Origin: an uncultured Candidatus Saccharibacteria bacterium
GTDB taxonomy: Bacteria > Patescibacteriota > Minisyncoccia > Phycocordibacterales > UBA9973
Length of the DNA: 64,000 nucleotides
Direction of reading: 5' to 3'
NCBI GenBank assembly: GCA_964522195.1
Contig: CAZFSV010000003.1
Span: 29,575 to 93,574 of the forward strand
The position numbers were made by a program, and so were the translations under genes. Positions 1 to 63,369 of this stretch are shown in pieces (positions within the stretch are counted from its first letter, which is position 1; the number at the start of each line of letters is the position of its first letter). The notes beneath the pieces were generated by a model. That model was not told the origin of the DNA and ran no database searches. It saw nothing but the letters and a program-made list of their open reading frames with translations.

Positions 1-1768
1 TGCTTATGGTGCTAAAGATATTTTACACGCTTATTCTTCTGGTCGTGGAGGTGTTGTTTGTCGTGGAGAAGCGGAAATAGTAGAACAAAAAGGAGGAATG
101 TATCAAATAATAATTACTTCTATTCCTTATAGAGTGAATAAAGCAAATTTAATCACAAGTATTGCTGAATTAGTTCAAGAGAAAAAGTTAGATGGTATCA
201 AAGGTCTTCGTGATGAATCAACAAAAGATATACGTATAGTTATAGATTTAAAATCTGGAGCTTATCCTGAAAAAGTTTTAAATTATATTTATAAAAATAC
301 TCAGTTAGAATCAAATTTTAATTTCAATATGCTTGCTTTGGTTGACGGAGTACCTCAAACATTGTCTTTGCATTCTATACTAGATAATTTTATTTCTCAT
401 AGAAAAGAAGTAGTTATTCGTCGTAGTCAATATGATTTACGAAAAGCCGAGGAAAGAGAACATATACTTTTAGGTCTTAAAAAAGCTTTAGATAAAATCG
501 ATAGAGTTATTACCATTATTCGTTCCTCTAAAGATAGTGCGACGGCAAAGGTAAATTTAATTAAAGAGTTTAAATTTTCAGACTTGCAAGCTACTGCAAT
601 TTTAGAAATGAAATTAGCAAAACTTGCAGGACTTGAAAGAAAAGCAATTGAAGATGAGTTGAAAGTAAAACAAGATTTTATTGCAGAAATGAAAGATTTA
701 CTTGCAAGCCCTAAGAAAATTTTGAAAGTTATTTCAACTGAATTAAAAGAGATTACTGATAAGTATAGGGATGAAAGAAGAACAAAAGTAGTAAAAGGTG
801 GAGTAAAAGAAATTAATGAGGAAGATTTAATTCCAGAAGAAGAAACTGTGTTGGTTTATACCTCTGGAGGATATGTTAAAAGAACAGACCCAAAAGAATA
901 TCATTCTCAAAAAAGAGGTGGTGTAGGGGTTATTGATCTTGAAACTAAAGAAGAAGATTTTGTAACTTTGCTTATAAATGGATCAACTCATGATGACTTA
1001 CTCTTTTTTACTAATTTAGGTAAAGCATATAGTATCAAAATGTATGATATTCCTGTAGGACGTAGAGCAACTAAAGGTAAATCTATTATGAATTTCTTAG
1101 CTCTCTCTTCTGAAGAGAAAGTAACATCTATTTTACCTACACCAAAAGCAAATGACAAAGACTCTTCTTTGATGCTTGTGACTCAAAACGGTACAGCAAA
1201 AAAGATGGCATCAGCAAGTTTTAAAGATGTCAGAAGGAGTGGTATTATTGCAATTAAGCTTGATAAAGATGATAGTCTAGTTTCTGCTTTTATTACTAAA
1301 AAAGGTGATAGTGTTATAGTTGCTACAGGCGAAGGTCAGTCTATTAGATTCAAAGAGTCAGATATCAGAGAAATGGGTAGAACAGCAGGAGGAGTAAGAG
1401 CTATTAAATTAGATAAAAAAGATGAAGTTATTAGCGTAGATGTTATTTTGAAAGAAATGGGAGATAAAGGATTTTTCTTAACGATGAGTGCAAATGGTTT
1501 AGGTAAAAAGACTTCACTTTCAGAATATAAAATTCAAAATAGAGGAGGATCTGGAATTAAAACAGCAAAAATAACTCCTAAAACTGGTAAATTAATTGTT
1601 GCAAAAGTAATAGGAGACGAACATGAAGAATTAATTGCTATGTCTAAAAAAGGACAAGTTATTCGTACAGCACTTAAAGATATTCCAGATCTTGGTCGCC
1701 AAACTCAAGGAGTTACAATTATGAGACTTAAAGGTGGAGACGGAATAGCATCACTTACTTGTTTTTAA
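1..1768 (+). CDS. gyrA: DNA gyrase subunit A, C-terminal part (5' end lies upstream of the window)
   Basis: The reading frame is open from base 2 (AYGAKDILHAYSSGRGGVVCRGEAEIVEQ...). There are six beta-pinwheel blades with repeated GG/KG motifs and a GyrA-box-like QKRGGVG. It ends at 1768 and is followed by a terminator hairpin. Confidence 0.8.
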   Translation, partial: AYGAKDILHAYSSGRGGVVCRGEAEIVEQKGGMYQIIITSIPYRVNKANLITSIAELVQEKKLDGIKGLRDESTKDIRIVIDLKSGAYPEKVLNYIYKNTQLESNFNFNMLALVDGVPQTLSLHSILDNFISHRKEVVIRRSQYDLRKAEEREHILLGLKKALDKIDRVITIIRSSKDSATAKVNLIKEFKFSDLQATAILEMKLAKLAGLERKAIEDELKVKQDFIAEMKDLLASPKKILKVISTELKEITDKYRDERRTKVVKGGVKEINEEDLIPEEETVLVYTSGGYVKRTDPKEYHSQKRGGVGVIDLETKEEDFVTLLINGSTHDDLLFFTNLGKAYSIKMYDIPVGRRATKGKSIMNFLALSSEEKVTSILPTPKANDKDSSLMLVTQNGTAKKMASASFKDVRRSGIIAIKLDKDDSLVSAFITKKGDSVIVATGEGQSIRFKESDIREMGRTAGGVRAIKLDKKDEVISVDVILKEMGDKGFFLTMSANGLGKKTSLSEYKIQNRGGSGIKTAKITPKTGKLIVAKVIGDEHEELIAMSKKGQVIRTALKDIPDLGRQTQGVTIMRLKGGDGIASLTCF

Positions 1769-1774
1769 AAAAAT

Positions 1775-1803
1775 AAACCGAAGAAATTCGGTTTATTTTT
1801 TTA
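1775..1803 (+). terminator. intrinsic terminator after gyrA
   Basis: aaaccgaa-gaaa-ttcggttt hairpin followed by a T-run. Confidence 0.6.
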
Positions 1804-1845
1804 AAAAACTTTATTTTTATTTTCTAAAAGTGTTATAATTATATT

Positions 1846-2379
1846 GTGTTTATAAAACCTGAAGAAATTTTAAAATATTTAGATTTACATAAAGATATGG
1901 TCTTAGTTGATTTAGGAGCTGGGACTGGATTTTATTCTATTTTAGCAGCAAAATTTTTACCTGAAGGTACAGTTTATGCTATTGATATAAATAATGATTT
2001 TCTAAAAACCATTAATCAGAAAGCTCGAGATTTACACTTAGATAATATTAGAACAGTGGTAGGGGATTTAGAGGAATCTTATGGTAGTAAATTAAACGAC
2101 AATATTGCTGATAAAATAATTATTTCAAATATGTTTTTTCATATTAAAAATAAAGAAATTTTTTTTAAAGAAATAAATCGTATTTTAAAAAAAGGAGGAC
2201 AGGTATTGTTTGTTGATTATCATCCTAACTCATTAATTTTCGGTAAATTACATAAAAATCTTTTGCCAAAAGAAGAAATAATGGATTTGTTTCAAAAAAA
2301 TCATTTTTCTTTTAATAAAGAAATTTTTGCAGGAGAGCATCATTATGCTATTATTTTTAATAAGGATTTTAAAATATGA
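1846..2379 (+). CDS. class I SAM-dependent methyltransferase
   Basis: VLVDLGAGTGFYS glycine-rich SAM-binding motif. It uses a GTG start just after a TGTTATAAT extended -10 (possibly leaderless). Its stop overlaps the start of the next gene. Confidence 0.6.
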   Translation: MFIKPEEILKYLDLHKDMVLVDLGAGTGFYSILAAKFLPEGTVYAIDINNDFLKTINQKARDLHLDNIRTVVGDLEESYGSKLNDNIADKIIISNMFFHIKNKEIFFKEINRILKKGGQVLFVDYHPNSLIFGKLHKNLLPKEEIMDLFQKNHFSFNKEIFAGEHHYAIIFNKDFKI

Positions 2380-3665
2380 AAAATTTTCAATTAGTTTTAG
2401 TTATAATTTTTATTTTTGGTGGAATTTTAGGAATTTTAGTTTTTGCTGGTTTTATAAATTTAGATGATACTGCTGTAAATAAACAATTTTCTGGAACTGT
2501 TAAGGTTTGGGGTAGTATTCCTGGTTCAGTTATGGCACCTTTAATTGAAGATCTTAATAAAAATAAAACTTATAATATTAATTACTATTTTATAAACCCT
2601 AATACTTTTAATGAAGAATTACTTGAAGCTATTGCTTTGGGTCAAGGTCCAGATTTATTTTTAGTTTCTAATGATTCTATTTATGAACATATTAATAAAA
2701 TTTCAGTAATACCTTATACTAATTATCCTTTAGTAAACTTTAAAAATAATTTCGTGCAAGCAAGTGATGTTTTTTTAGTTAATGAAGGTGCGCTCGCTCT
2801 ACCTTTAGTTGTTGACCCATTAGTTCTTTACTATAATAGAAGTATTTTAGACTCAAATGGTACAGTTTTTCCACCTTATTTTTGGGAAGATTTAGAGGAT
2901 TATTCAGAAAAATTTACTAAAAAAGATGAAGCAGGACAAATAGAAAGGAGTGCTTTTGCTTTAGGTGTTTTCGATAACATCAATCACTCAAAAGATATTT
3001 TGTCGGCTATGTTTCTACAAACAGGTAATCCTATAATTCAAAAAGCAAAATACCTGTTTGAAAGTGTTTTGATTGCTAATTTAGATAACCAGAATAACAC
3101 AGCTCAAGCACTAGATTTTTATACAAGCTTTTCTAATCCTTTGAAGGATAATTATTCTTGGAATAAATCTTTTCCGAATTCGCTCGATATGTTTAGTAAA
3201 GAAGATTTAGTTTTTTATTTTGGTTTAGCAAGTGATTTTAAAATTTTAATAAATAAAAATCCAAATCAAAATTTTCAAATAGCAGAATTACCTCAATATA
3301 AAAACACTCAAAAAGCAACCTATGCTAAAGTTTTAGGGGTAGCTATGTCTAATTTCAGTAAGAATCAAGGGGCTGCATTTGATGCTATGTATTCTATGTC
3401 TGAGTCTAGCTTTGTAGGTCAAATTAGTAAAATAGAGAATTTGCCACCTGCCCGTAGAGATTTATTAAATCAAGGTTCTGCGAATTCGTATTTACCAGTA
3501 TTTTATTCTTCGGCTTTGTTCGCTAAAAGTTGGCTAGATCCTTCTTTTAGAGATACAAATATTGTTTTTAGGGCTATGGTTGATCAGGTTTTATCTAATG
3601 AAAGAGATGCAATTGAATCAATTACTGCAGCAAATAATCGTATTAATATTTTATTTAGAAATTAA
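2376..3665 (+). CDS. membrane-anchored extracellular solute-binding-protein-like protein (SBP family 1-like)
   Basis: An N-terminal TM/signal anchor is followed by a periplasmic-binding-protein-like pattern (VKVWGS...PDLFLV...YYNRSIL...TWEDL). No ABC permease or ATPase lies adjacent. Confidence 0.35.
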   Translation: MKNFQLVLVIIFIFGGILGILVFAGFINLDDTAVNKQFSGTVKVWGSIPGSVMAPLIEDLNKNKTYNINYYFINPNTFNEELLEAIALGQGPDLFLVSNDSIYEHINKISVIPYTNYPLVNFKNNFVQASDVFLVNEGALALPLVVDPLVLYYNRSILDSNGTVFPPYFWEDLEDYSEKFTKKDEAGQIERSAFALGVFDNINHSKDILSAMFLQTGNPIIQKAKYLFESVLIANLDNQNNTAQALDFYTSFSNPLKDNYSWNKSFPNSLDMFSKEDLVFYFGLASDFKILINKNPNQNFQIAELPQYKNTQKATYAKVLGVAMSNFSKNQGAAFDAMYSMSESSFVGQISKIENLPPARRDLLNQGSANSYLPVFYSSALFAKSWLDPSFRDTNIVFRAMVDQVLSNERDAIESITAANNRINILFRN

Positions 3666-3668
3666 ATT

Positions 3669-4028
3669 ATGAAATTTATAACAACTTTTTTATTCATCTT
3701 TATTTTACCAATTACTAGTTTTGGAGCTGGTTTAGTATCTTGTGATGGGGTTACAGTAAAATGTGACTATGATGCTTTTATTGAATTAGTTAATAATGTT
3801 ATAAAATTTATCATGGTTAATCTAGCCTTACCTTTAGCTGCTATTGCTTTTGCTTATGCAGGATTTTTATTTTTAACTTCAGCTGAAAATCCAGGTCAAA
3901 GAACTCAAGCTAAAAGTATATTTACAAATGTACTTATTGGTCTTTTGTTAATTGGAACCGCTTTCCTTTTAGTAAAATTAGTCTTAGAGATTTTAAAATA
4001 CAAAAACGCTGGATCTCTTGGTTTTTAG
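3669..4028 (+). CDS. small secreted two-TM protein, VirB2/TrbC-pilin-like topology (subfamily A)
   Basis: Signal peptide, then two hydrophobic helices separated by ENPGQRTQAK. The motif Y.GF.F.T...NP.....AK....VIG is shared with the next gene. Confidence 0.45.
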   Translation: MKFITTFLFIFILPITSFGAGLVSCDGVTVKCDYDAFIELVNNVIKFIMVNLALPLAAIAFAYAGFLFLTSAENPGQRTQAKSIFTNVLIGLLLIGTAFLLVKLVLEILKYKNAGSLGF

Positions 4029-4052
4029 AATTAAAATAGTTATAATTTATAT

Positions 4053-4427
4053 ATGAAAAATTTATTTATTAAAAATTTGCAAAAATATTTCTTGATTTTT
4101 ACTTTCTTGCTTTTACCTTTAGTTTCTTTAGCTGATGGTACTCAGCCAAGTGGAGGAACCACAACCCTAAAAAATCCTTTAGAATATGAAACCATAAATG
4201 AATTTCTTAAAGCCATAGTTGAAGGTGTACTTAAATTAGGTATTCCTATTATTGTGCTTGCTATTATTTATTCTGGATTTTTATTTGTGACTGCTTTAGG
4301 TAATCCAACTAAATTAGAGAAAGCAAAAGAAGCCTTTCTTTATACAGTTATAGGCGCAGCTATTCTTCTGGGGTCTTGGGGCCTTGCTCAATTAATATCA
4401 GAAACAATTATTCAAATTAGTAAATAA
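4053..4427 (+). CDS. small secreted two-TM protein, VirB2/TrbC-pilin-like (subfamily A paralog)
   Basis: Same topology and motif as 3669..4028 (IYSGFLFVTALGNPTKLEKAKEAFLYTVIG). Confidence 0.45.
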   Translation: MKNLFIKNLQKYFLIFTFLLLPLVSLADGTQPSGGTTTLKNPLEYETINEFLKAIVEGVLKLGIPIIVLAIIYSGFLFVTALGNPTKLEKAKEAFLYTVIGAAILLGSWGLAQLISETIIQISK

Positions 4428-4442
4428 TTATATATAAAAAAT

Positions 4443-4901
4443 ATGAAAAACCTTAAATACAAATTTATAAATCTAGCTTTTATTCTTTTGTTTAGTGTTA
4501 TGCCTTTGATGTCTTTCGCTCAATTAGGTACTGATCTAGGGGCTGATGATAATGTTGATTATTATAATGGTAATACCTCACCTTCCTCATCTTCTTCTAG
4601 TAATTTGAGTTGCTCTGTTGGTCAAGAACCTACAATAGCTAGTATTTTTGATTATATGCTTTGTATTATAAACCGATCTATAATTCCTTTAATATTCGGC
4701 TTAGCTACTTTATTATTCATTTGGGGTGTAGTTAAATTTGTATTAAATACAGATAATGAAAGTGAAAGAGAAAAAGGTAAGGAATTCATGATTTGGGGAA
4801 TTATAGCTCTTACAGTCATGATAACTGTTTGGGGAATTGTAAATTTGCTTGGTAGTAGTTTTGGCTTAGATACAAAATATATACCATCCGTAAAACCTTA
4901 A
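4443..4901 (+). CDS. small secreted two-TM protein, VirB2/TrbC-pilin-like (subfamily B)
   Basis: Signal peptide, a variable Ser-rich N-region and a conserved C-terminal module IIPLIFG...WGVVKF..N.DNESEREKGKEFMIWGIIALTVMITVWGIVN. Bases 4758..4840 are identical to 5158..5240. Confidence 0.45.
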   Translation: MKNLKYKFINLAFILLFSVMPLMSFAQLGTDLGADDNVDYYNGNTSPSSSSSSNLSCSVGQEPTIASIFDYMLCIINRSIIPLIFGLATLLFIWGVVKFVLNTDNESEREKGKEFMIWGIIALTVMITVWGIVNLLGSSFGLDTKYIPSVKP

Positions 4902-4905
4902 TTGT

Positions 4906-5301
4906 ATGAAAAATTTTAAATATAAATTTTTAAATGTTTTATTTATAGCCTTACTTTTGTTTACTGATAATATTGCTTTTGCTCAAAATTCTAATAACTC
5001 TTGTTCTGTTTCTAAAGCAGGAGCAAAAACAACTTTTAAGAGTTTATTAGAATATTTTACTTGTATTATTAATTCCTCTATTATTCCTTTTTTATTTGCT
5101 ATTGCTATTATTGCTTTTCTGTGGGGTGTAGTCCAGTTTTTCTTAAATGGAGAGAACGAAAGTGAAAGAGAAAAAGGTAAGGAATTCATGATTTGGGGAA
5201 TTATAGCTCTTACAGTCATGATAACTGTTTGGGGAATTGTGGCTATTGTGGGAGGAAGTTTTGGCTTTGAGGTTGATGTTATTCCACAGGTGGGTCTATA
5301 A
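4906..5301 (+). CDS. small secreted two-TM protein, VirB2/TrbC-pilin-like (subfamily B paralog)
   Basis: Shares an 83-nt perfect identity with the previous gene across the C-terminal TM module. Confidence 0.45.
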   Translation: MKNFKYKFLNVLFIALLLFTDNIAFAQNSNNSCSVSKAGAKTTFKSLLEYFTCIINSSIIPFLFAIAIIAFLWGVVQFFLNGENESEREKGKEFMIWGIIALTVMITVWGIVAIVGGSFGFEVDVIPQVGL

Positions 5302-5442
5302 ATTGCTTTATTTTAAATAACCCTATGATATAATTTAATTAACCTAGTATTTAGGAAATAGAAAAGGTCGATATTCAAAAATAAATAAAATTAAAAATTA
5401 TCAGTTAATTTCTTTAAAAAGAAATAAATTTAAATAAAAAAT

Positions 5443-5880
5443 ATGAAGAAAAAATTAATTAGTTTAGGTTTAGTAACAAGTTTAGTTTTAATGTTTGCAA
5501 TGTTTGCTTTACCAGTTGCTACTACTTTTGCGCAAGCACAACAAAATGTTGAAGGAGATTGTGCTTCTATAAATGAAGCTAACCCTTTGCAAGTTTTCTT
5601 GTGTAGAATTGCATTGCTTCTAAACTCAGCAATACCTGTTATGATTACTCTTGCTGTAGTTTACTTTATTTGGGGTGTTATTACTTATGTTATTGCTGAA
5701 GAAGAAGAAGCTAAAACAAAAGGTAGAGATAAAATGATTTGGGGTATTATAGGACTTGCTGTTATCGTTTCTGTTTGGGGTCTTGTGAATTTCTTGAAAG
5801 GTTTCGTTGGAATCGGAGATTCTAATGTTGTTAATATTCCTTGTATTCCAGGTCCAGGTATTACTTGTCCACAACAATAA
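5443..5880 (+). CDS. small secreted two-TM protein, subfamily B paralog
   Basis: Signal peptide plus the ...KGRDKMIWGIIGLAVIVSVWGLVNFL module. Confidence 0.4.
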   Translation: MKKKLISLGLVTSLVLMFAMFALPVATTFAQAQQNVEGDCASINEANPLQVFLCRIALLLNSAIPVMITLAVVYFIWGVITYVIAEEEEAKTKGRDKMIWGIIGLAVIVSVWGLVNFLKGFVGIGDSNVVNIPCIPGPGITCPQQ

Positions 5881-5887
5881 ACTTAAA

Positions 5888-6220
5888 ATGTATTTACTTT
5901 TATTTTTATTACCAAATATTGCCCTAGCTTCATTTGATTCATTTTTAAATAATGTAAATAATTTAATAGTGAATCCATTGATAAATTTCTTGTTTGCAGT
6001 TGCTTTAGTTTTTTTCCTTTATGGATTGTTTAACTTTATAGCAAATGGAGATAATGAAAGTATTCGCACTGAAGGTAAAAGTCATATGCTATACGGAATT
6101 ATTGGTATGGTTATTATGATGGGGGTTTGGGGAATTACAAATTTACTTATCAATACTTTAGAAATTGAAGGTATTGATCCGGAAAAAGGTGAAGTAAATT
6201 TAGAGGATTTTCCAGAATAA
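5888..6220 (+). CDS. small secreted two-TM protein, subfamily B paralog
   Basis: ATG at 5888 (MYLLLFLLPNIALASF...). The track's 5807 start overlaps the previous gene in another frame. It carries the ...NESIRTEGKSHMLYGIIGMVIMMGVWGITNLL module. Confidence 0.4.
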   Translation: MYLLLFLLPNIALASFDSFLNNVNNLIVNPLINFLFAVALVFFLYGLFNFIANGDNESIRTEGKSHMLYGIIGMVIMMGVWGITNLLINTLEIEGIDPEKGEVNLEDFPE

Positions 6221-6226
6221 AAATAA

Positions 6227-6262
6227 ACTAAAAACTCTCTTTTCAGAGAGTTTTTAGTTTGT
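6227..6262 (+). terminator. intrinsic terminator after the pilin-like array
   Basis: aaaaactctct-tttc-agagagttttt hairpin plus a T-run. Confidence 0.55.
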
Positions 6263-6281
6263 GGATTTTAATATAAAAATA

Positions 6282-6318
6282 AAAAAAGGTTTCGCTTAAG
6301 CGAAACCTTTTTGGGTTT
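6282..6318. terminator. bidirectional terminator hairpin
   Basis: aaaaaaggtttcgc-ttaa-gcgaaacctttttgg. It serves the + array and the convergent minus-strand operon. Confidence 0.55.
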
Positions 6319-6929
6319 TAATAATAAACAATTTCCACCGCTGTTGTGTTATCGTTTATTTTTTCAAAAATGTACTTATTTGTACCAAATTTTTTAGGGT
6401 AGTAATTATCTACCCCGGGGCAATCTTCCTTTGGTTGTTCTCCGGGAGCTGTATATAATACACAGCCACCTTTTGGATAAAATTTGAATGGTGGAGTAAG
6501 GTCTTTTTCAATAATCTTACTATTACCAAAATACAAATACTCACTCCGAGGTCTTTGTGAAATATTTTGATTATTAGTTTTTGTTGTGTCATTTTTCAAA
6601 GAATTTTTAATATCATTTCCTTTGAAATAGATTATTAAAAAAAAGAAACAACTAAGATATAAAGCCCAAGCATAGTCCCATTTCCAAATGTATTGGAACA
6701 GAGAAAGAATTACCATAAAAATCAACACAAACCATAATTCCCACATTTTCTCTGGTCCAATTATGTAATACAGCAAACCAAACCAAAATGTGTTCCACAT
6801 CATGGCCGAAAAAAGCATTTGGATATCGTATTTTTTTACTCCACCTGTATTTAAATTTTGATTTTTTAAAAAAGCAAAATAAATAATTACAAGTAGTACA
6901 AGAATACTTATTCCTAAAAAAATTTCCAT
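6318..6929 (-). CDS. hypothetical polytopic membrane protein
   Basis: Several TM helices followed by a Cys-containing soluble tail. It sits downstream of the SPFH gene, so it could be an NfeD-like partner. Confidence 0.3.
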   Translation of the reverse strand: MEIFLGISILVLLVIIYFAFLKNQNLNTGGVKKYDIQMLFSAMMWNTFWFGLLYYIIGPEKMWELWFVLIFMVILSLFQYIWKWDYAWALYLSCFFFLIIYFKGNDIKNSLKNDTTKTNNQNISQRPRSEYLYFGNSKIIEKDLTPPFKFYPKGGCVLYTAPGEQPKEDCPGVDNYYPKKFGTNKYIFEKINDNTTAVEIVYY

Positions 6930-6955
6930 TTTTTTTGTTTTTAAAAGTTAAAGAA

Positions 6956-7876
6956 TTAGATACCAATATTGGTATTTGTGTTTCCTAAAACCAAAGTCCC
7001 TTGATGTTTTTCAATTCCCTGACTTTGTTTTAAACTCATAACAGCTGCCAAAATCTCTTTTGGATTTGCTCCTGTTTTTTGTAATCTATCAATCAAAGAA
7101 TCTATTTCAGCCACCGCTTGCTTACTTCTGTAGTTAGCATCCGCATCCGCATCAATTCTACGAGCTTCTGCGCGTAAATCCGCTATGGCTTTTGCATTAG
7201 CTGCCTCCAGTAAAGCGTTATCAGCACTATATTCACTGATATTAAAAGCAGTTGCAATTGCTCCCGTGTTTAATTTCAAAATTTCATTAAGTTTACTTAA
7301 GTCTCCTGAAATAGGGTCATTAAGTAAATTTTTGAAAAAATTAGATCCTTCACCTTTGTCTTCATTAATAAATTCAGTTAAATTGTCAATGTTTTTAACC
7401 AAATCATTAACCTTTGAGGAAATTATAGTTATTAAAGCCCTGTAATTACCTTTTAAGTTAAAAACAAATATTTTAGGTTCTTCAAATTTTAAAATCACGT
7501 TTACTAAAAGACTAATTTTTGTTCTGTCTTTTAGCTCTACGTCGCTCATTAAGATCGGCAGTGTTACAATCTTGCGAAGAGTGCCTGTTTCAAAGTTTTC
7601 TTCGTGAGAAATCCAGGTCTTTGGATCTTCTGGTTTTCTGTCCGGATTTAGCTTATATTTGTTTATCACAAAATTATGAACTTTGTGAATAAACCTAAAG
7701 CCAACCCAATAATACCCAAAAATATGGAAATGTTTATTAGGGTCGTCACCATCTATTGTTTTTACCCAGGTTTCTCCTTGAACTATAAACTTATAGTTGC
7801 CGGATTCAACTGTAGTGAAATTGTAGGACATGATTGCAAGAATTAAAATCCAAATACAAATAATTGTTAGTGTCAT
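6956..7876 (-). CDS. SPFH/band-7 (stomatin/prohibitin-like) domain membrane protein
   Basis: N-terminal TM. The core VELKDRTKISLLVNVILKFEEPKIFVFNLKGNYRALITIISSKVNDL fits the SPFH pattern V.TKD..V.VD.VV.YRV.DP. A C-terminal coiled coil (AIADLRAEARRIDADA) is present. Confidence 0.5.
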   Translation of the reverse strand: MTLTIICIWILILAIMSYNFTTVESGNYKFIVQGETWVKTIDGDDPNKHFHIFGYYWVGFRFIHKVHNFVINKYKLNPDRKPEDPKTWISHEENFETGTLRKIVTLPILMSDVELKDRTKISLLVNVILKFEEPKIFVFNLKGNYRALITIISSKVNDLVKNIDNLTEFINEDKGEGSNFFKNLLNDPISGDLSKLNEILKLNTGAIATAFNISEYSADNALLEAANAKAIADLRAEARRIDADADANYRSKQAVAEIDSLIDRLQKTGANPKEILAAVMSLKQSQGIEKHQGTLVLGNTNTNIGI

Positions 7877-8018
7877 TTTTTAAAATTTTAAAAAGTTAAT
7901 AAATAGTTTTTGGAAGAATAGAATAGGGAATTATTCCGCCGAAAACTATTTATTAACTTAAAAATCTCTTTGTCAAAGTACTATTTTCTTTGTATATAAT
8001 ATCATAAAATAACAAAAA

Positions 8019-8048
8019 AGTCAATCTTTTTGATTGACTTTTTTGTGT
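8019..8048. terminator. terminator for the minus-strand gene 8066..8905
   Basis: aaaaaagtcaatc-ttttt-gattgactttttt, a perfect 13-bp palindrome flanked by A/T runs. Confidence 0.6.
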
Positions 8049-8065
8049 TTAATTATAATTATTTA

Positions 8066-8905
8066 TTAAGCGTGTTTTAGAGGTTGATTGATTTCTCTTT
8101 CTGTTACCCAGAGTTTTCTGAAAAGTAATACTCCTAAGAATACAAGAACGAAAAGCATTAACCATCCAAGGAAACTATCAGGCATAAAACCTTTCACACT
8201 ACTTGATACACTTGCTGTTAATTTTGTATTTGAATCATTATCATTTGTAGTCGCAGATGCTAAACAATTAGTATTTTCTGCTACAGCTACTTTTTTAGGT
8301 TCTTCTTTTTTAACGACTGTTTTTGCTGGTGTTTTCTTTGCTACTGTTGTGTTAGCTGTTTTTGTAGTACTTGCTTTTGTTGTTGTAGCACTTTTTACTG
8401 TTCCTGTTTTTCCTTCAAGTAAAGTTATGATTTTAGGATTTGAGAACACTCCACCTTCAGTACTCGGATTAACAACTGTCACAATATATTTTCCTGGTGT
8501 TTTAGTATCTCCACTATCAAGACGCATTTTTAATTGATTTGCACTTACAAAAGTAGTAGGGCGGTCTTGACTGTTAAAGCGTGCAATTGAGTCTGGTTTG
8601 AAACCTGTACCATAGATTGTAATAGTTTTTATATCATCCCCAGTGTAAGCTTCTTCTGGATTTATTGAATATATGGTAGGTACTTTGTTTTTGTCTAAAA
8701 CATTAGGATTAAAGTTTGAATTGTTATTTGTATTATTGCCTGTTGTGTTTATAGTACTAGTTCCATTACATGGTCCGTCACAATAAGTATAAGCTCCTAG
8801 TGTTAGATAAGCTTCAGCTGCAGTAGGAGAAAGAAAAGCTGAAAATACAAGGAAACCAAAAGCTAAAAATCCAAATATTAAATTGTTTGTATTTTTATTA
8901 TTCAT
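8066..8905 (-). CDS. surface-anchored protein with an IPT/TIG-like Ig domain
   Basis: Signal peptide, an IPT/TIG-like segment (PTIYSINPEEAYTGDDIKTITIYGTGFKPDSIARFN...YIVTVVNP), a Thr/Lys-rich linker and a C-terminal TM anchor. Confidence 0.45.
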   Translation of the reverse strand: MNNKNTNNLIFGFLAFGFLVFSAFLSPTAAEAYLTLGAYTYCDGPCNGTSTINTTGNNTNNNSNFNPNVLDKNKVPTIYSINPEEAYTGDDIKTITIYGTGFKPDSIARFNSQDRPTTFVSANQLKMRLDSGDTKTPGKYIVTVVNPSTEGGVFSNPKIITLLEGKTGTVKSATTTKASTTKTANTTVAKKTPAKTVVKKEEPKKVAVAENTNCLASATTNDNDSNTKLTASVSSSVKGFMPDSFLGWLMLFVLVFLGVLLFRKLWVTEREINQPLKHA

Positions 8906-9167: not shown

Positions 9168-9240
9168 GCGCCCATAGCTCAGCTGGTAGAGCAGATCCCT
9201 CTTAAGGATAAGGTCCAAGGTTCGATCCCTTGTGGGCGCA
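9168..9240 (+). tRNA. tRNA-Lys (anticodon CTT)
   Basis: Acceptor GCGCCCA/TGGGCGC, D-arm TAGCTCAGCTGGTAGAGC, anticodon loop CTCTTAA, T-arm CAAGGTTCGATCCCTTG. Confidence 0.8.
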
Positions 9241-9345
9241 CAAAGCATGTTATGCTTTGTGCGAATAGCAGGCACGATTGATGCCGAGACGGGGTAGCGA
9301 GATTTTTCAGCAGAAAAATACTTGTGACTACAAAGTAATTATATA
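9241..9345 (+). repeat. tRNA-adjacent mini-element, copy 1 (after tRNA-Lys)
   Basis: A hairpin overlaps the tRNA 3' end (cgcacaaagcat-gtt-atgctttgtgcg). It is followed by atagcaggca...gccgagacggggtagcgagatttttcagcagaaaaatacttgtgac, which is about 80% identical to 9556..9605. Confidence 0.4.
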
Positions 9346-9363: not shown

Positions 9364-9445
9364 GGGTAAGTGGCGGAATTGGTATACGCGCTGGTCTTAG
9401 GAACCAGTGCCGCAAGGCTTGAGGGTTCGAGTCCCTCCTTACCCA
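9364..9445 (+). tRNA. tRNA-Leu (anticodon TAG)
   Basis: Acceptor GGGTAAG/CTTACCC, anticodon stem CTGGT/ACCAG with loop CTTAGGA, long variable arm. Confidence 0.85.
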
Positions 9446-9449
9446 CAAA

Positions 9450-9627
9450 AATTCACAAAAGACAGCTAAATGCTGTCTTTTGTGTTATTTTTTTGTGTGG
9501 TAAAGGAGAGGCGAGAAAGACGGAGGCGGTATACAAGAGGAGCACAGCGAGTGCTTGTGGCCGAGTCGGGGTCGCGAAAATTTTCTTTAGAAAATTATTT
9601 GTGACCGAGTCCCTCCTTACCCACAAA
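9450..9627 (+). repeat. tRNA-adjacent mini-element, copy 2, ending in a 22-nt exact direct repeat of the tRNA-Leu(TAG) 3' end
   Basis: cgagtccctccttacccacaaa occurs at 9428..9449 (inside the tRNA) and again at 9606..9627. The internal motif gccgagtcggggtcgcgaaaattttctttagaaaattatttgtgac is shared with copies 1 and 3. Terminator hairpins lie on both sides. Confidence 0.55.
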
Positions 9628-29545: not shown

Positions 29546-29767
29546 ATGAGTGATTTAAAAACAGATAAACCCTTAACAAAAATAGGTGTTATAATAGAAG
29601 CTTTACCTTCGACTTTATTCAAGGTTCGTTTTGAGACCGAGGAAGAAATTCTTGCGTATTTAGGTGGAAAAATGAGAATTAATAGAATTAAAGTTCTAAT
29701 AGGTGACAAGGTTGAAGTTTTATTAGATCCTTATGGTGGAAAAGGTAGAATTATTAAAAGATTATAA
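29546..29767 (+). CDS. infA: translation initiation factor IF-1
   Basis: A 73-aa S1-like OB fold: ...KMRINRIKVLIGDKVEVLLDPYGGKGRIIKRL. Confidence 0.85.
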   Translation: MSDLKTDKPLTKIGVIIEALPSTLFKVRFETEEEILAYLGGKMRINRIKVLIGDKVEVLLDPYGGKGRIIKRL

Positions 29768-46112: not shown

Positions 46113-46784
46113 TTGAAAGTTATGAGAAATTTATTTTTTTTATTGTTCTTAGTAATTCCTTTTTCAGTTTTTTCACAATATGATGAGAAAGAAAAAGAAG
46201 AAGAAAAAACTGAAAAGCAAACCACAAAATTCACCTGTGATGACTTACTCAAAGAGCATTTGGCTTCCTGCGAGCGTTGCGCTACTGGGGACAAATGTTA
46301 CACTCGGCGAGATATTATTGACTTTTGTTCTGGTAAAAAAGAGCAAGAGTTAATAGTGGTTGATCCTGGCTCGGATAATTGTGGATGTCCTACTTATGGT
46401 TTTCATTATCCTCAAGTAAGTCCTTGGTTTAATGAATATTATACACCTTACAACACAGGATTTTATTATACGGGACCTACTTTTGGTTATGGTTCTGGTT
46501 TAAATCTTTCTGTAGGAGTTAGGGGAGGATATTTTGTTGGAGGAGCTTATCCGAATTTAGGGTCTTATTATGGTAGAGCCTATTATAATTCTTACGGAGG
46601 ATATTACGGCCGAGGGTCTTATTATGGTAGAGGCTATTATAATTATCAAGGAGGATATTACGGTAGAGGTAACTACTACGGTCAAGGTGGTTTCCATGGT
46701 AATGGAAATTATTATAATCACGGAGGAGGAAGTAGTAGAGGGAGCTATTATGGCTCTAGAAAAACGACACAACGGGGTCGTTAA
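46113..46784 (+). CDS. secreted Cys-containing protein with a Gly/Tyr/Arg-rich low-complexity tail
   Basis: Signal peptide, an eight-Cys N-domain and the repeats GGYYGRGSYYGRGYYNYQGGYYGRGNYYGQGG. Confidence 0.4.
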   Translation: MKVMRNLFFLLFLVIPFSVFSQYDEKEKEEEKTEKQTTKFTCDDLLKEHLASCERCATGDKCYTRRDIIDFCSGKKEQELIVVDPGSDNCGCPTYGFHYPQVSPWFNEYYTPYNTGFYYTGPTFGYGSGLNLSVGVRGGYFVGGAYPNLGSYYGRAYYNSYGGYYGRGSYYGRGYYNYQGGYYGRGNYYGQGGFHGNGNYYNHGGGSSRGSYYGSRKTTQRGR

Positions 46785-47174: not shown

Positions 47175-47245
47175 GGGCGATTAGTTTAGTGGTAGAACAA
47201 CGGTCTCCAAAACCGTTGGCGGGAGTTCGATTCTCTCATCGCCCG
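47175..47245 (+). tRNA. tRNA-Trp (anticodon CCA)
   Basis: Acceptor GGGCGAT/ATCGCCC, anticodon stem ACGGT/ACCGT with loop CTCCAAA, T-arm GGGAGTTCGATTCTCTC. A terminator hairpin follows at 47252..47279. Confidence 0.8.
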
Positions 47246-47280
47246 CAAAAAAAGAACAGCGAAAGCTGTTTTTTTTGTTG

Positions 47281-47428
47281 GGCGATAGCAGGCAAACTAC
47301 TTTGCCTGTGTGAGGAATCGAAAGGCGGAACTATATTTTTTGAGCACAAAAAATAAGTGAGCCAGGGTTGTGAAAATTTTCAAGCGACGGCGAGAAAATT
47401 ATTCCTGACCGGTCTCTCATCGCCCGCA
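47281..47428 (+). repeat. tRNA-adjacent mini-element, copy 3, ending in a 16-nt exact direct repeat of the tRNA-Trp 3' end
   Basis: It starts gggcgatagcaggca (the tRNA 5' end plus the atagcaggca motif). It contains gaaaattttc...gcgacggcgagaaaattattcctgacc. tctctcatcgcccgca occurs at 47232..47247 and again at 47413..47428. Confidence 0.55.
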
Positions 47429-47566
47429 TTTGACAAAATAGCTAAAATATGTTAATCTACTTCAAGTAGTAGAGTTCTTTAATATTTTGTTTTGTGTATT
47501 GCTTTTTGGACGTCATTTATTGATTTCTAGGGAGCAATATGCAATAACAATTAAAATAATTTTTAA
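47429..47566 (+). promoter_or_regulatory. cassette promoter (TTGACA-N17-TAATCT) plus conserved structured leader, copy a
   Basis: About 85–90% identical to 48422..48549 through the start codon. It contains the hairpin ctact-tgaaa-tagtag and a 9–11-bp stem that pairs tattgctttttgg with ctagggagcaa over the SD-like AGGGAG. Confidence 0.5.
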
Positions 47567-48277
47567 ATGAAATTTAAAAAAGAAAATGATGGTACACATA
47601 TTTATGTGGAAAGTAATGAAGGTGAATTTGAAGTTTTACGTGCCATAGTACAGGCTTCATTTGATTCCTCTGTTCCTGTAGGAATGGGTTTACTAAACTT
47701 TAATAAGGGCGACAAGTTAAGCAGAAATGATGCAGAAAAATTTATTAACAAAACTGATTGGGATAGACCAGGGGCAAGTTTGGTTAATATGGATTACGTT
47801 GGCGGACGTCAGTGTAAAACATATATCAGTCGCGTTGATAAAAATCACTTCAGAATAGCAACTAATTCTTTTGAAAGAGATAGAGGCAATATTGAATTGA
47901 TGCTTGATTTGGTAAACCCAATCATTGAAAAAGACCGCAAGCCTGGTGAAAAAGTTAACCTGACTTCAACTTTTGTTGGTGAAAGTTTAGACAAAAAACT
48001 TACAGAATATGGTTACCAAAGATTACAAAATGAAGATGACTGGTCATTCAGAAAAAGAATTTTCCCTGATCTCTTTATTAAATGCCCTGGTGATCAAAGA
48101 TCTTTGGAATTTTTGTATGGCAAACCATTATCTGATTGGAATGAAATTGAAAGCATGCTTTCTCTAACAGTTTTAATGGAATCAAATGTTGATTATGCTC
48201 AATTGAAAAAGTTTGCAGATGATTTTGGTGGTGATCCATTAAAAATGTGGCCTATTGATCAAAGTATAGCTGTTTAA
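47567..48277 (+). CDS. hypothetical protein (cassette 1 cargo)
   Basis: A 236-aa soluble protein with no recognised motif. Confidence 0.4.
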   Translation: MKFKKENDGTHIYVESNEGEFEVLRAIVQASFDSSVPVGMGLLNFNKGDKLSRNDAEKFINKTDWDRPGASLVNMDYVGGRQCKTYISRVDKNHFRIATNSFERDRGNIELMLDLVNPIIEKDRKPGEKVNLTSTFVGESLDKKLTEYGYQRLQNEDDWSFRKRIFPDLFIKCPGDQRSLEFLYGKPLSDWNEIESMLSLTVLMESNVDYAQLKKFADDFGGDPLKMWPIDQSIAV

Positions 48278-48393: not shown

Positions 48394-48549
48394 AGTTCTG
48401 AAATCCAAACATCAAGTCCGCAGTTGACAAAATACTAAAATATGTTATTCTACTTGAAATAGTAGGGTTCTTTGATATTTTGTTTTGTATATTGCTCTCT
48501 GGGTGTCATTTTGGTTTCTAGGGAGCGATATGCAAATCATAATTTAAAT
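48394..48549 (+). repeat. cassette boundary: degenerate tRNA-Trp 3' end-like site, then promoter and leader, copy b
   Basis: agttctgaaatccaaacatcaagtccgc is followed by TTGACA at 48424. The leader shows compensatory changes in its stem (ctctc/ttttt both pair with gggag). Confidence 0.5.
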
Positions 48550-49005
48550 AATTTTAAAATGAAATTAAAAATTTCAGTAGAACAAGTAACAAATGGAAGA
48601 GAGTATAAGGGAATCATTGAAGGTTTGGGTGAAGACTTAAATTACAAATTAAAATTTGGTGTTCCTATAGACCAATTGGATAATCAAAAAGTACCTGAAA
48701 GTAAGGAAGAAGCAAGTATTTTTGCAAAAAAACTATTTAATTTTACTGTAAAAAAAGGAGAAGATTCTCTTGAAATGTCAGATGAACTATTTGCTTTTAT
48801 GGTTCAAACAGCAGGTCATCTTACGCTCACTTTTTACAGCGATGAACAAGCCCAAAGTTATAATAATGGCTCAGGTGTTTTATCAGAAGCTCTTAATAGT
48901 AAAGAAAACAGTTTAATGGGAGCTTTTGGTGCCAGTGTCTCGATTGGAATGTCTCGTTCAATCGATTTACCAAAAGAAAAATTACCTACTATTTTACAAA
49001 ATTAA
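48550..49005 (+). CDS. hypothetical protein (cassette 2 cargo)
   Basis: ATG at 48550 (MKLKISVEQ...) aligns with the start of cassette 1. The track's 48472 start lies inside the conserved leader. Confidence 0.4.
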   Translation, partial: NFKMKLKISVEQVTNGREYKGIIEGLGEDLNYKLKFGVPIDQLDNQKVPESKEEASIFAKKLFNFTVKKGEDSLEMSDELFAFMVQTAGHLTLTFYSDEQAQSYNNGSGVLSEALNSKENSLMGAFGASVSIGMSRSIDLPKEKLPTILQN

Positions 49006-49117: not shown

Positions 49118-49266
49118 GTTCTGAAATCCACTCATCAAGCCCGCATTTGACAAAATACTAAAATATGTTATTTTATTTTAAATAGTAGGGTTCTTTGATA
49201 TTGGATTTAGTTGGGTTTTCAGAGGAGATTTGGTCTTTTCTGATAACCTAATTAAATAATTAAAAA
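49118..49266 (+). repeat. cassette boundary plus promoter, copy c (leader diverges after ~49205)
   Basis: agttctgaaatccactcatcaagcccgca-tttgacaaaatactaaaatatg. The segment ctcatcaagcccgca resembles the tRNA-Trp 3' end ctcatcgcccgca. Confidence 0.5.
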
Positions 49267-49521
49267 ATGAAAAAAGAAAATTTATGTTGCTTAGTAGTGT
49301 TCGGTAATTTTGTTGCCTTAAATAGAAAAAAATTAGATGAAATTCCTGAAAATGAAAAACCTGAAATTGATTTAGAAAAAGGCTTGTGGAAAGACGAAAA
49401 ATGGGTTTGGCGTAAAATTGGAGAAGAAACTGGTAGTGGTTTAATCCGCTTTATCTTTGATCACACTAACTATGCTCATTCAGGACGAGCCCTCGGAATA
49501 GTCGCAGATTTCAATAGATAA
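49267..49521 (+). CDS. hypothetical small protein (cassette 3 cargo)
   Basis: 84 aa: MKKENLCCLVVFGNF... Confidence 0.35.
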   Translation: MKKENLCCLVVFGNFVALNRKKLDEIPENEKPEIDLEKGLWKDEKWVWRKIGEETGSGLIRFIFDHTNYAHSGRALGIVADFNR

Positions 49522-49687
49522 GACGAAAAGATTGCCTGCTAGGAGTTAATGTCAAAATACAATCTACTAAATTATCTTAAGGAATAGTCATTCGTGATTG
49601 TTCCTTTTTTATTTTATTTTTTTTAAAATGAATAATACTTAATTTAATCAAAGAGCTACTAACTAATAGTTCGGAAATCCAAACATC

Positions 49688-49715
49688 AAGTCCGCTCGTG
49701 AACTTTGTGAATGTT
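49688..49715 (+). repeat. fourth degenerate tRNA-Trp-end-like site (no TTGACA module follows)
   Basis: agttcggaaatccaaacatcaagtccgc. Confidence 0.4.
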
Positions 49716-50019
49716 GTGAACTTGATTGTTTTCTCTATGAGAATTATTCTGTTAAATAACTTGCTTTTTTATAAAAATATGGTATAAACTATTTGATATT
49801 GTACTTAAAAATTTTTTAAAAATTAGACTCATGAAAGCCTGTTTAATATTTTCTAGAGATGGAAAAACTGCATTTATTAAATTTGAAAACGGATCAGAAT
49901 CGCTAGATTTTGAAAGTAAAGAAGAAGTAATTCATGGAATAAATCATTGCCAAGTACTTGGCAAAATTACCAAAAATGAGGCAAGGTAATTCTTAAAAGA
50001 AATTAGCTTAGCTGAGAAT

Positions 50020-62824: not shown

Positions 62825-63287
62825 ATTTAAAATAATTTTATCAGAAAAAGTCTTTTAAATCAAAGAGGCCCTGAACTTAAGTCCAGGGCCATTTTTATGT
62901 ATTTTACTTGTAAGTTCAGGCTTGGCCTGTTGCAAAAGTTAAAATACTTCTTTTTATTTAATTTGGGATGAGCAAATTATTTTTATAAAATTTTTTATAA
63001 AATTTCTCCTTTCAAAAATTAAGATTATTTTCATTAATAAACTTAAGCCATTTTTTAATTTATGAGAAATTTATTCTCCTTTTTTGGCTTGTAAATTAAG
63101 CTTTATCTTATTTTTTCCATTTAAAATGGTATAAAATAATAATATAAATAATAATCCACCTTCTCCCTGTAAAGAACTGTATATCTCTTATACTATAGCA
63201 TTTTTATAAAATAAAGTCAAGTGCTTAATTAAAATAAATAAATTCAATACAAAAAAGACTTAATTTAAATTAAGTCTTTTTTGTATG

Positions 63288-63369
63288 TGCCGGAGGAGAG
63301 AATCGAACTCTCACACCTTGCGATACACGATTTTGAGTCGTGCGCGTCTACCAATTCCGCCACTCCGGC
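63288..63369 (-). tRNA. tRNA-Leu (anticodon CAA)
   Basis: Reverse complement GCCGGAGTGGCGGAATTGGTAGACGCGCACGACTCAAAATCGTG...GAGAGTTCGATTCTCTCCTCCGGCA. Confidence 0.8.

Follow-up and report, generated by a model that had tools for sequence, protein, structure and literature searches.

The cassette array beside tRNA-Trp and its leaders

On contig CAZFSV010000003.1 of an uncultured Candidatus Saccharibacteria bacterium (assembly GCA_964522195.1), a tRNA-Trp gene is adjoined by an array of small gene cassettes, each of which opens with a copy of the same repeat unit: a promoter followed by a 5' leader that folds into a long hairpin. This unit, a portable "expression head" for unrelated genes, was analysed within a stretch of 64,000 nucleotides (nt; positions 29,575 to 93,574), which is called the window here and whose own numbering is used, with features on its + strand unless indicated. 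The order along that strand is rpmG (L33, 46881-47036), tRNA-Trp (47175-47246), a terminator, a tRNA-like unit (TLU) and three cassettes, and each of the latter is made up of a leader, one open reading frame (ORF), a terminator and finally a box of 27-29 nt.

The anchor of the array, tRNA-Trp(CCA), was called by both ARAGORN and Rfam; its 3' end reads ...CTCTCATCGCCCGCA and would, in our interpretation, be the target of recombination. The TLU occupies 47281-47429 (149 nt), and leader 1 (47430-47566) is joined directly to its end. Gene 1 (47567-48277) follows, encoding 236 amino acids (aa) of no known family, and cassette 1 is closed by a tRNA-3'-like box, GTTCTGAAATCCAAACATCAAGTCCGCA (48395-48423), the junction of which to the next promoter reads ..CCGCA|GTTGACA. 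Leader 2 (48424-48558) comprises a promoter (48424-48451), a core (48460-48479) and a hairpin (48477-48543), and is followed by gene 2 (48559-49005) and a box at 49118-49146. In leader 3 (49147-49266) the same elements are located at 49147-49174, 49183-49202 and 49205-49257, respectively, ahead of gene 3 (49267-49521) and its box (49669-49695). The three ORFs encode proteins of 84-236 aa that are unrelated to one another, and none of these proteins matched Pfam or PHROGs.

A preliminary description of this DNA had reported two copies of the leader, and both were recovered: 47442-47518 matches 48435-48511 with 87% identity over 77 nt. A third copy, which has diverged further and is absent from that description, was found at 49158-49234, where the first half is kept and the second half is different; the hairpin of leader 3 is unlike that of leaders 1 and 2 in sequence and lacks the AGGGAG-ATG arrangement discussed below. 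The core TAGTAGRGTTCTTTRATATT occurs exactly three times in the window, compared to 0.11 occurrences expected by chance.

Each unit begins with a consensus promoter of the sigma-70 type, consisting of TTGACA, a 16-nt spacer (17 nt in copy 1) and TGnTATTCT. For cassette 1 it is located at 47430-47458 (-35 TTGACA at 47430-47435, a 17-nt spacer, TG at 47450-47451 and -10 TAATCT at 47453-47458), and in copies 2 and 3 it agrees with the consensus at 10 of 12 positions and has the extended -10 TG. Going by this consensus, the promoters would fire and transcription would start about 7 nt past the -10 hexamer. The promoter is followed by a conserved segment, TAGTAGGGTTCTTTGATATT, within leader 1 the 5'-proximal core, TAGTAGAGTTCTTTAATATT, being located at 47467-47486. 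The predicted 5' untranslated region (UTR) of about 100 nt would then consist of a single-stranded conserved start (..GGUUCUUUGAUAUU), the long hairpin and a start region that is rich in A/U and has no Shine-Dalgarno (SD) sequence; together with the ATG of gene 1 this region spans 47551-47569. A small hairpin that had been proposed as a second structured element, the inverted repeat CTACT-N6-AGTAG, is indeed present in both of the copies first reported (CTACTTCAAGTAGTAG at 47457-47472 and CTACTTGAAATAGTAG at 48450-48465). It is poorly conserved, being intact in 7 of 11 copies, weak or broken in the other 4 and never compensated, and its 5' arm (CTACT) overlaps the -10 hexamer. For these reasons it is not regarded as an RNA element, and it is probably not wholly transcribed.

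Ten further copies of the leader, derived from two genome assemblies of the Candidate Phyla Radiation (CPR) and three metagenome contigs, bring the total to 13. A search with the core motif revealed true homologues in a Saccharibacteria metagenome-assembled genome (MAG; L006 and L010, read as the reverse complement and then marked "r") and in a Paceibacterota MAG (L008), and homologues of gene 1 and gene 2 gave three more leaders (L036, L041 and L045). At the gene-1 homologue loci L038, L039 and L043 the upstream regions are unrelated to the leader, and at L040 the contig begins too near the gene for its leader to be judged. Eleven close leaders share the near-invariant promoter TTGACAAAAT..TAAAA.ATGTTA, the spacer of which is unusually invariant for a mere promoter, and in the distant L036 and L041 a comparable promoter reads TTGAC[AT]-N17. 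All 13 leaders contain a core with GTTCTTT, which is retained even in L036 and L041, one long hairpin and an A/U-rich stretch before the ATG, usually with AATTAAAT. They precede at least seven unrelated ORFs, which bears out the earlier proposal that a conserved and structured 5' leader accompanies cassette genes unrelated to each other. Scanning metagenomes with the core motif listed 21 loci, all of them chance matches without promoter or hairpin context, and the matches listed by two viral scans were chance or unrelated promoter matches. Phage and plasmid collections, searched with the array by BLAST, gave no similarity, and a search for sequence complementary to the conserved core, as a possible trans partner, found only the core itself.

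The long hairpin and the start region

The long stem is real and extends further than was first described, comprising about 24 bp and a 4-bp tip in leader 1 (47487-47550) and in leader 2. Whole leaders (about 110-127 nt) fold with -30 to -38 kcal/mol (z -5.5 to -7.0; 0 of 200 shuffles as stable), and the three window leaders, when folded from the predicted transcription start to the ATG, reach -27.6 to -33.2 kcal/mol (z -5.1 to -6.0). Compared to all 70-nt segments of the 64 kb on both strands, the leader hairpins belong to about the top 0.1%, and they do so on the + strand only. The same stability class contains tRNAs and terminators, but the terminators, unlike the leader hairpins, are found on both strands. 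Each of the 13 leaders folds with a z between -3.6 and -6.9, which 0 of 200 shuffles match, and has a helix of 17-30 bp.

Five sequence types of the hairpin were distinguished. Type A is found in window leaders 1 and 2, L045, L006r3893, L010r1180 and L008_327; type B in window leader 3, L006r4618 and L008_1250; type C in L010r66 and L010r2051; type D in L036 and type E in L041. Identity among the close leaders is 78-98% for the promoter and core; for the hairpin region, compared between types A, B and C, it is 44-57%, which is approximately the background for this composition. A basal helix, in which AUUURRUUG pairs with CAAUUWAAU (about 5-25 nt before the AUG), is conserved, and the distal helix is freely replaceable, giving rise to types A-E. 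The strongest structural argument is precisely this turnover of the whole sequence between types while the helix stays.

When a covariance model was trained on type B alone (three copies), it recovered the other types (L010r2051 partly) with E values of 2e-5 to 0.035. It detected no other copy in the window, and no other copies of any hairpin type were found elsewhere in the 64 kb. As the model aligned the types in different registers, pairs were counted per type and complemented by z-scores per sequence. In type B (three copies) 5 of 25 pairs are doubly compensated and 96% of cells are paired, a result reached by 6 of 500 shuffles, and pairing falls to 37-58% in slid-alignment controls. Type A (five copies) shows no doubly compensated pair, and its 12 pairs that changed on one side only (G-U/G-C/A-U) are not in excess over shuffles. 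The stem had been called covarying; TTTTT in one copy and CTCTC in the other do lie opposite GGGAG, and pairing is kept there via G-U or G-C. For that pair of copies, and for type A, the term goes too far, the changes being of the wobble kind only; type B does show compensatory changes.

In types A-C the structure is also specific for one strand, the sense strand folding with -23 to -33 kcal/mol compared to -6 to -22 kcal/mol for the antisense strand, and the 13 leaders together contain 77 G-U pairs versus 5 A.C single mismatches. Since the decay of an unselected palindrome would yield G-U and A.C equally, it is on the sense strand that the helix is under selection, an indication of an element at the level of RNA. 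Rfam 15 at the gathering score reported only tRNAs in this DNA, and a permissive search of the leader gave only sub-threshold look-alikes of microRNA precursors. Two other explanations of the leader were considered and dismissed. An intrinsic terminator or attenuator does not fit, as the terminator scan was silent and the stem is followed by AUUAAAAUAAU.. rather than by a U-tract, and a coding sequence does not fit either, as orthologous gene-2 leaders differ by frame-breaking 1- and 2-nt indels.

The 3' arm of the hairpin holds AGGGAG (47529-47534 in leader 1, 48520-48525 in leader 2), which stands, as was first noted, 4 nt ahead of the mini-ORFs ATG-CAA-TAA (47539-47547) and ATG-CAA-ATC-ATA-ATT-TAA (48530-48547). 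It is likewise correct that the main ATGs at 47567 and 48559 both lack an SD sequence. Across the whole window (62 ORFs of at least 100 aa), GGAG, GAGG or AGGA is present at -20..-3 in 4 of 62 genes, versus 14 of 62 at an in-gene control position. The upstream regions of these genes are about 90% A/T, and a TATAAT-like hexamer beginning exactly at -12 was found for 12 of them, forming a sharp peak. A hexamer at this position is the classic signature of leaderless mRNAs, from which many genes of this organism are probably translated. In a genome that does not use SD sequences, a main ATG lacking one is ordinary, and no ribosome signal is to be expected in AGGGAG. The gene models stand as annotated, since gene-1 homologues align from the annotated Met, without any shift to the AGGGAG-proximal ATG.

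The energy required to open -30..-5 lies at or above the 97th percentile of the other genes of the window in 11 of 13 leaders, and that of -15..+10 is ordinary in types A and C and high in types B and E. The hairpin is thus predicted to crowd the region of ribosome loading, without the start codon always being covered. An SD-sequestering riboregulator or RNA thermometer was rejected on the grounds that the main ORFs are SD-less, that AGGGAG is unconserved and that -15..+10 is ordinary in types A and C. The leader of a type I toxin-antitoxin system was rejected as well: the ORFs encode 84-236 aa and are unrelated, and no antisense promoter-like site was found over the leaders.

Boxes, tRNA-like units and a serine recombinase

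The box that ends each cassette (GTTCTGAAATCCAAACATCAAGYCCGCA) resembles the 3' end of tRNA-Trp, a further copy of which is found at the end of the TLU (47414-47429). The units are bounded by direct repeats of this attachment core (boxes at 48395, 49118 and 49669, together with 47414-47429), the tRNA-Trp 3' end being regenerated. Read on the opposite strand, the box at 48395-48423 encodes ADLMFGFQNF*, the C-terminus of a serine recombinase of the related Saccharibacteria MAG. In that MAG the array ends at a gene for this large serine recombinase (Resolvase, Recombinase and zinc-ribbon domains), which is located on the opposite strand and whose last ten codons are the cassette box. The gene (L010 2302-4021, +) is split by a 1-nt frameshift, and an intact homologue (P0030) is 96% identical. 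At another locus (L050, 10001-11722) a 96%-identical recombinase stands directly against tRNA-Trp, after an L33-like ORF, with its 3' end overlapping the tRNA in antisense; neither cassettes nor leaders were found at this "empty" junction. No integrase was found close to the window's array. With identical flanks, the window and the MAG differ in the cassettes they contain: the gene-1 cassette is present in the window, with its join at ..CCGCA|KTTGACA, and missing from the MAG.

The recombinase belongs to a family (P0030-P0149) of about 560-590 aa, and in most members the C-terminal 10-28 residues are antisense read-through of a tRNA (for example ..AGDEGIEPSP..VLPLN, ..RGIEPRL.., ..RIEL and ..GIEP..). 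As the C-terminus is encoded in this way, the attachment site would lie within both the tRNA and the recombinase frame. In the MAG it is the cassette box, rather than the tRNA, that supplies the C-terminus. Close to the recombinase element of L050, a polymorphic-toxin-like protein of 2652 aa with SpvB, YD-shell and Tox-REase-7 domains is encoded at 349-8307 (-).

Not all units carry the hairpin leader. An alternative, hairpin-less 5' module (49696-49830), joined at ..CCGC|, precedes an ORF of 52 aa (49831-49989). It reads TCGTGAACTTTG.. (TCGTGAACTTTGTGAATGTTGTGAACTTG..), then TTGCTT-N17-TGgTATAAA and then ..TATTTGATATTGTAC; it has the UUUGAUAUUGUA motif in common with the hairpin leader but lacks the long hairpin, and it is present twice in the MAG array (L006r 6819-6950 and L010r 3246-3390). 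The units joined at the ..CCGC(A) core comprise a terminator plus TLU (three times in the MAG), this alternative leader and a NUDIX cassette with its own promoter, and the hairpin leader is the commonest of several 5' modules. Since joining occurs without the hairpin leader, a role of the hairpin in recombination is disfavoured.

The TLU begins with GGGCGAT (the 5' acceptor of tRNA-Trp) and ends with TCTCTCATCGCCCGCA, the copy of the tRNA-Trp 3' end, and it folds with -49.8 kcal/mol (z -3.85). It recurs three times in the MAG array (L006r 3743-3891 and ~6680-6822, L010r ~1028-1178), with a compensatory change in one hairpin. Members of the same family were observed behind other tRNA genes of the window, at ~9497-9627 (after tRNA-Leu(tag), 9364-9446) and ~9262-9340 (after tRNA-Lys, 9168-9241). 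Their common plan is a location after the terminator, with a copy of the 5' acceptor of their own tRNA at the start and a copy of that tRNA's 3' end at the end. They share the internal motifs ATAGCAGGCA.. and GAAAATTTTC..GAAAATTATTYSTGACCG and fold with -50 to -57 kcal/mol, and neither Rfam nor ARAGORN gave a call for the TLUs. They may be miniature tRNA-targeting elements or ends of serine-recombinase elements. Beside tRNA-Leu(caa) (63287-63369, -), the segment 63356-63485 contains hairpins of -27 to -34 kcal/mol that repeat TAGCCGGAGTG, a match to the 5' end of the adjacent tRNA-Leu, and may be another tRNA-linked repeat like the TLUs.

Possible roles of the leader

With a probability that we put only a little above one half (roughly 0.55), the hairpin is a cis-acting, sense-strand 5'-UTR element of self-promoted cassettes that tunes translation and/or mRNA stability. 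The cassettes, consisting of promoter, leader, one ORF, terminator and tRNA-3'-like box, are stacked head to tail behind tRNA-Trp and appear to be the product of site-specific recombination at the ..CCGC(A) core. The assembling enzyme would most likely be a large serine recombinase, the box being the 3' end of its own gene. In an organism that may rely on unstructured or leaderless starts, a hairpin abutting, and often including, the -30..-5 region could throttle or gate ribosome loading, and such a stable double-stranded block may influence 5' decay or processing by RNase III. That the hairpin acts on translation or stability, and in which direction, we infer from sequence comparison and folding; the opening energies at -30..-5 give a slight lean towards a throttle over a stabiliser.

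Several observations weigh against this reading. In types A and C, -15..+10 opens as readily as in ordinary genes. The start codon is therefore not simply occluded in every leader, and the hairpin may equally raise expression, for instance as a stabiliser. Types D and E fold equally on both strands. Orthologous leaders, at 91-96% identity, are not better conserved than synonymous sites (92-97%), in a comparison that has no power to resolve differences at 91-97% identity. The predicted start of transcription, and with it the 5' limit of the RNA, follows from the promoter consensus only. The same arrays contain cassettes without a hairpin, which is thus dispensable for a cassette as such. Finally, the 64-kb window contains no recombinase, the link to which comes from one related MAG and L050.

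The main rival, possible but clearly less probable than the reading above, reverses the sign of the effect: the hairpin would be a positive element that stabilises the mRNA and insulates the start region from upstream sequence, serving as a site of RNase III processing, as an obstacle to decay in the 5'-to-3' direction, or as both. The helices, whose sequence is free to vary, measure 17-30 bp and so match in length the substrates of RNase III (some 20 bp or more of almost uninterrupted double-stranded RNA); -15..+10 is accessible in types A and C, and the module resembles a complete portable expression unit with promoter, hairpin, A/U-rich start and terminator. However, about 20-25 nt of single strand precede the hairpin, which is therefore not at the extreme predicted 5' end, cassettes without hairpin exist, and the helix of types B and E extends as far as the start region. 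Less likely are three further readings, among which a role at the level of DNA comes first, though it is improbable in itself. Here the conserved segment, perhaps with the hairpin folded in single-stranded DNA, would be part of a recombination site, as attC is in integrons. The ..CCGCA|KTTGACA junction at the left edge of the leader, the serine recombinase gene that ends in the box, the unusually invariant promoter spacer and a conservation of structure rather than sequence, as in attC, would all fit. On the other hand, differing right-hand sequences (the TLU, the alternative leader, the NUDIX cassette and the recombinase gene itself) are joined at that same junction, and the hairpin begins about 57 nt from it, beyond the 40-50 bp of typical serine-recombinase sites. 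Moreover, duplex DNA is the substrate of serine recombinases, the numerous G-U pairs would turn into G-T mismatches at the DNA level, and direct reading revealed no R''/L''/L'/R' boxes of attC.

The palindromes could also be neutral or selfish insertions (MITE-like, i.e. miniature inverted-repeat transposable elements, or REP-like, i.e. repetitive extragenic palindromes) at a hotspot in the leader, without a role in expression. The presence of several unrelated hairpin sequences in one slot and the strand symmetry of types D and E are in line with this, but the absence of further copies of any type in the 64 kb, the strong sense-strand bias in G-U pairs, the compensatory changes in type B and a basal helix that draws on conserved leader sequence on both sides make it very unlikely. 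Least probable, and largely refuted by the comparison of homologues, is the model of the preliminary description, according to which AGGGAG is the sequestered SD of a regulatory upstream ORF, the mini-ORF, that would control the main ORF by coupling or SD release. AGGGAG does stand 4 nt before an ATG in window leaders 1 and 2 and in L045, and GGGGAG does so in L006r3893, but the mini-ORF ATG is confined to these four closely related type-A copies. In the type-A leaders L010r1180 and L008_327 the ATG is lost and AGGGAG has become AGAGAG, and types B-E have neither feature. Where both are present they are hidden in a stem whose energy is about -25 kcal/mol or lower, the length (two versus five codons) and the stop codon of the mini-ORF vary, and the genome makes no use of SD sequences. 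AGGGAG and the mini-ORF thus appear to be incidental sequence of one hairpin type, AGGGAG being merely the partner of CUCUCU or UUUUU.

Full-text literature on cassettes, tRNA genomic islands and serine recombinases of Saccharibacteria and Patescibacteria yielded no description of arrays like this one. For the leader, the nearest analogues are ordinary 5'-UTR hairpins together with the attC hairpins and attI small ORFs of integrons; for the array, they are SCC-type tandem elements and serial tRNA-linked islands. Bacterial 5'-UTR hairpins that set translation or stability include leaders that occlude the start region, phage leaders processed by RNase III and 5' stabiliser stem-loops. The hairpin described here is like them in acting, as we read it, in cis on the sense strand, in its location between promoter and start codon near the ribosome loading region, and in the conservation of structure over sequence. 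It differs from them in that no SD is involved, the host being SD-less and leaderless-prone, in that it has no Rfam match and is known here from sequence, and in that it is modular and common to unrelated, putatively mobile cassettes.

In integrons, attC hairpins and the small ORFs of attI (ORF-11 and ORF-17) affect the translation of cassettes (PMC11511950; PMC8876359). The likeness consists in arrays of single-gene cassettes, each with a structure-conserved hairpin, and in the notion that SD-poor cassettes are modulated in their translation by a hairpin or tiny ORF. Integron cassettes are promoterless, however, with attC 3' of the ORF and recombination by a tyrosine integrase, whereas the cassettes described here have their own promoter and terminator, a hairpin that precedes the ORF and begins about 57 nt away from the junction, an associated large serine recombinase in the related MAG and an unconserved mini-ORF. 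The hairpin was accordingly rejected as an attC site, given that it is on the wrong side of the ORF, that no RYYYAAC...GTTRRRY boxes were found on direct reading, that the junction is about 57 nt upstream and that there is one promoter per cassette. Tandem elements of the staphylococcal cassette chromosome (SCC/SCCmec) type are moved by Ccr large serine recombinases (PMC11470126). They have in common with the present array the 3' end of a conserved gene as attachment site, which is regenerated with each insertion, a large serine recombinase (next to the array in the related MAG, absent from the 64-kb window), a tandem arrangement bounded by direct repeats, and recombinase-less units beside a recombinase-bearing one. 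In SCC the target is rlmH and the units measure 20-70 kb; here the target is the tRNA-Trp 3' end, the units, known from sequence, are of one gene and 0.55-1 kb and share a promoter and hairpin leader, and the host is a CPR bacterium. The tycheposons of Prochlorococcus are serial tRNA-targeted islands (bioRxiv 10.1101/2020.12.28.424599). They resemble the array in their repeated integration beside a tRNA gene with partial tRNA copies between units, a minority using large serine recombinases, but they are multi-gene, with their own integrase and replication genes, and no shared structured leader has been described for them. In defining features the leader and its array differ from all of these, ordinary 5'-UTR hairpins, integrons, SCC elements and tycheposons alike.

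A more far-reaching and rather speculative possibility is that the array represents an integron-like gene-capture platform of CPR bacteria (Saccharibacteria, Paceibacterota), built on a tRNA-targeting large serine recombinase. Every one-gene cassette would bring along a composite module of junction, promoter and structured leader, and the interchangeable long hairpin would be a dedicated switch, keeping stockpiled cassettes translationally silent, or lending stability to their mRNAs, until a factor of the host or the element processes or opens it. If true, this would be a logic of cassette expression not described for integrons or SCC elements. If the reading favoured above is right, a second, mechanistically different cassette system with per-cassette promoters and a conserved RNA hairpin would stand beside integrons, the usual model of cassette capture. 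The module would be tied to a previously undescribed, serine-recombinase-linked array of mini-cassettes at tRNA-Trp, and would offer a first handle on the expression of acquired genes in ultra-small, SD-less, leaderless-prone CPR bacteria. The promoter and structured leader would be ready-made for placement before any ORF, and, together with the attachment box, would provide compact parts for the genetics of organisms that are hard to manipulate.

Concerning the cassette genes, the family of gene 1 comprises at least 26 proteins (P0001-P0026) of about 230 aa without Pfam or PHROG match, in which H11, R81-Q82, W159 and R162-R164 are among the invariant residues. A profile search of PDB gave no match for gene 1, and Foldseek found no similar fold in PDB for its confident AlphaFold model (mean predicted local distance difference test score, pLDDT, 85.6). 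The gene-1 homologue of L036 is located near genes with helix-turn-helix and TIR domains. One MAG cassette (L006r 4618-5200, also present in L046) encodes a small Cys-rich, zinc-ribbon-like protein whose frame, MAKKVFGDLESHVKKTEI* followed by ..YESPEGFHRHKCEKCKYVWEH..CPNCGDEQW, is broken at an A7 run, which could reflect an assembly error, a pseudogene or a homopolymer switch. Just upstream of rpmG, the ORF at 46113-46784 encodes a Gly/Tyr-rich repetitive protein (GGYYGRG.. motifs) without Pfam match and contains a 54-nt tandem repeat at 46559-46666.

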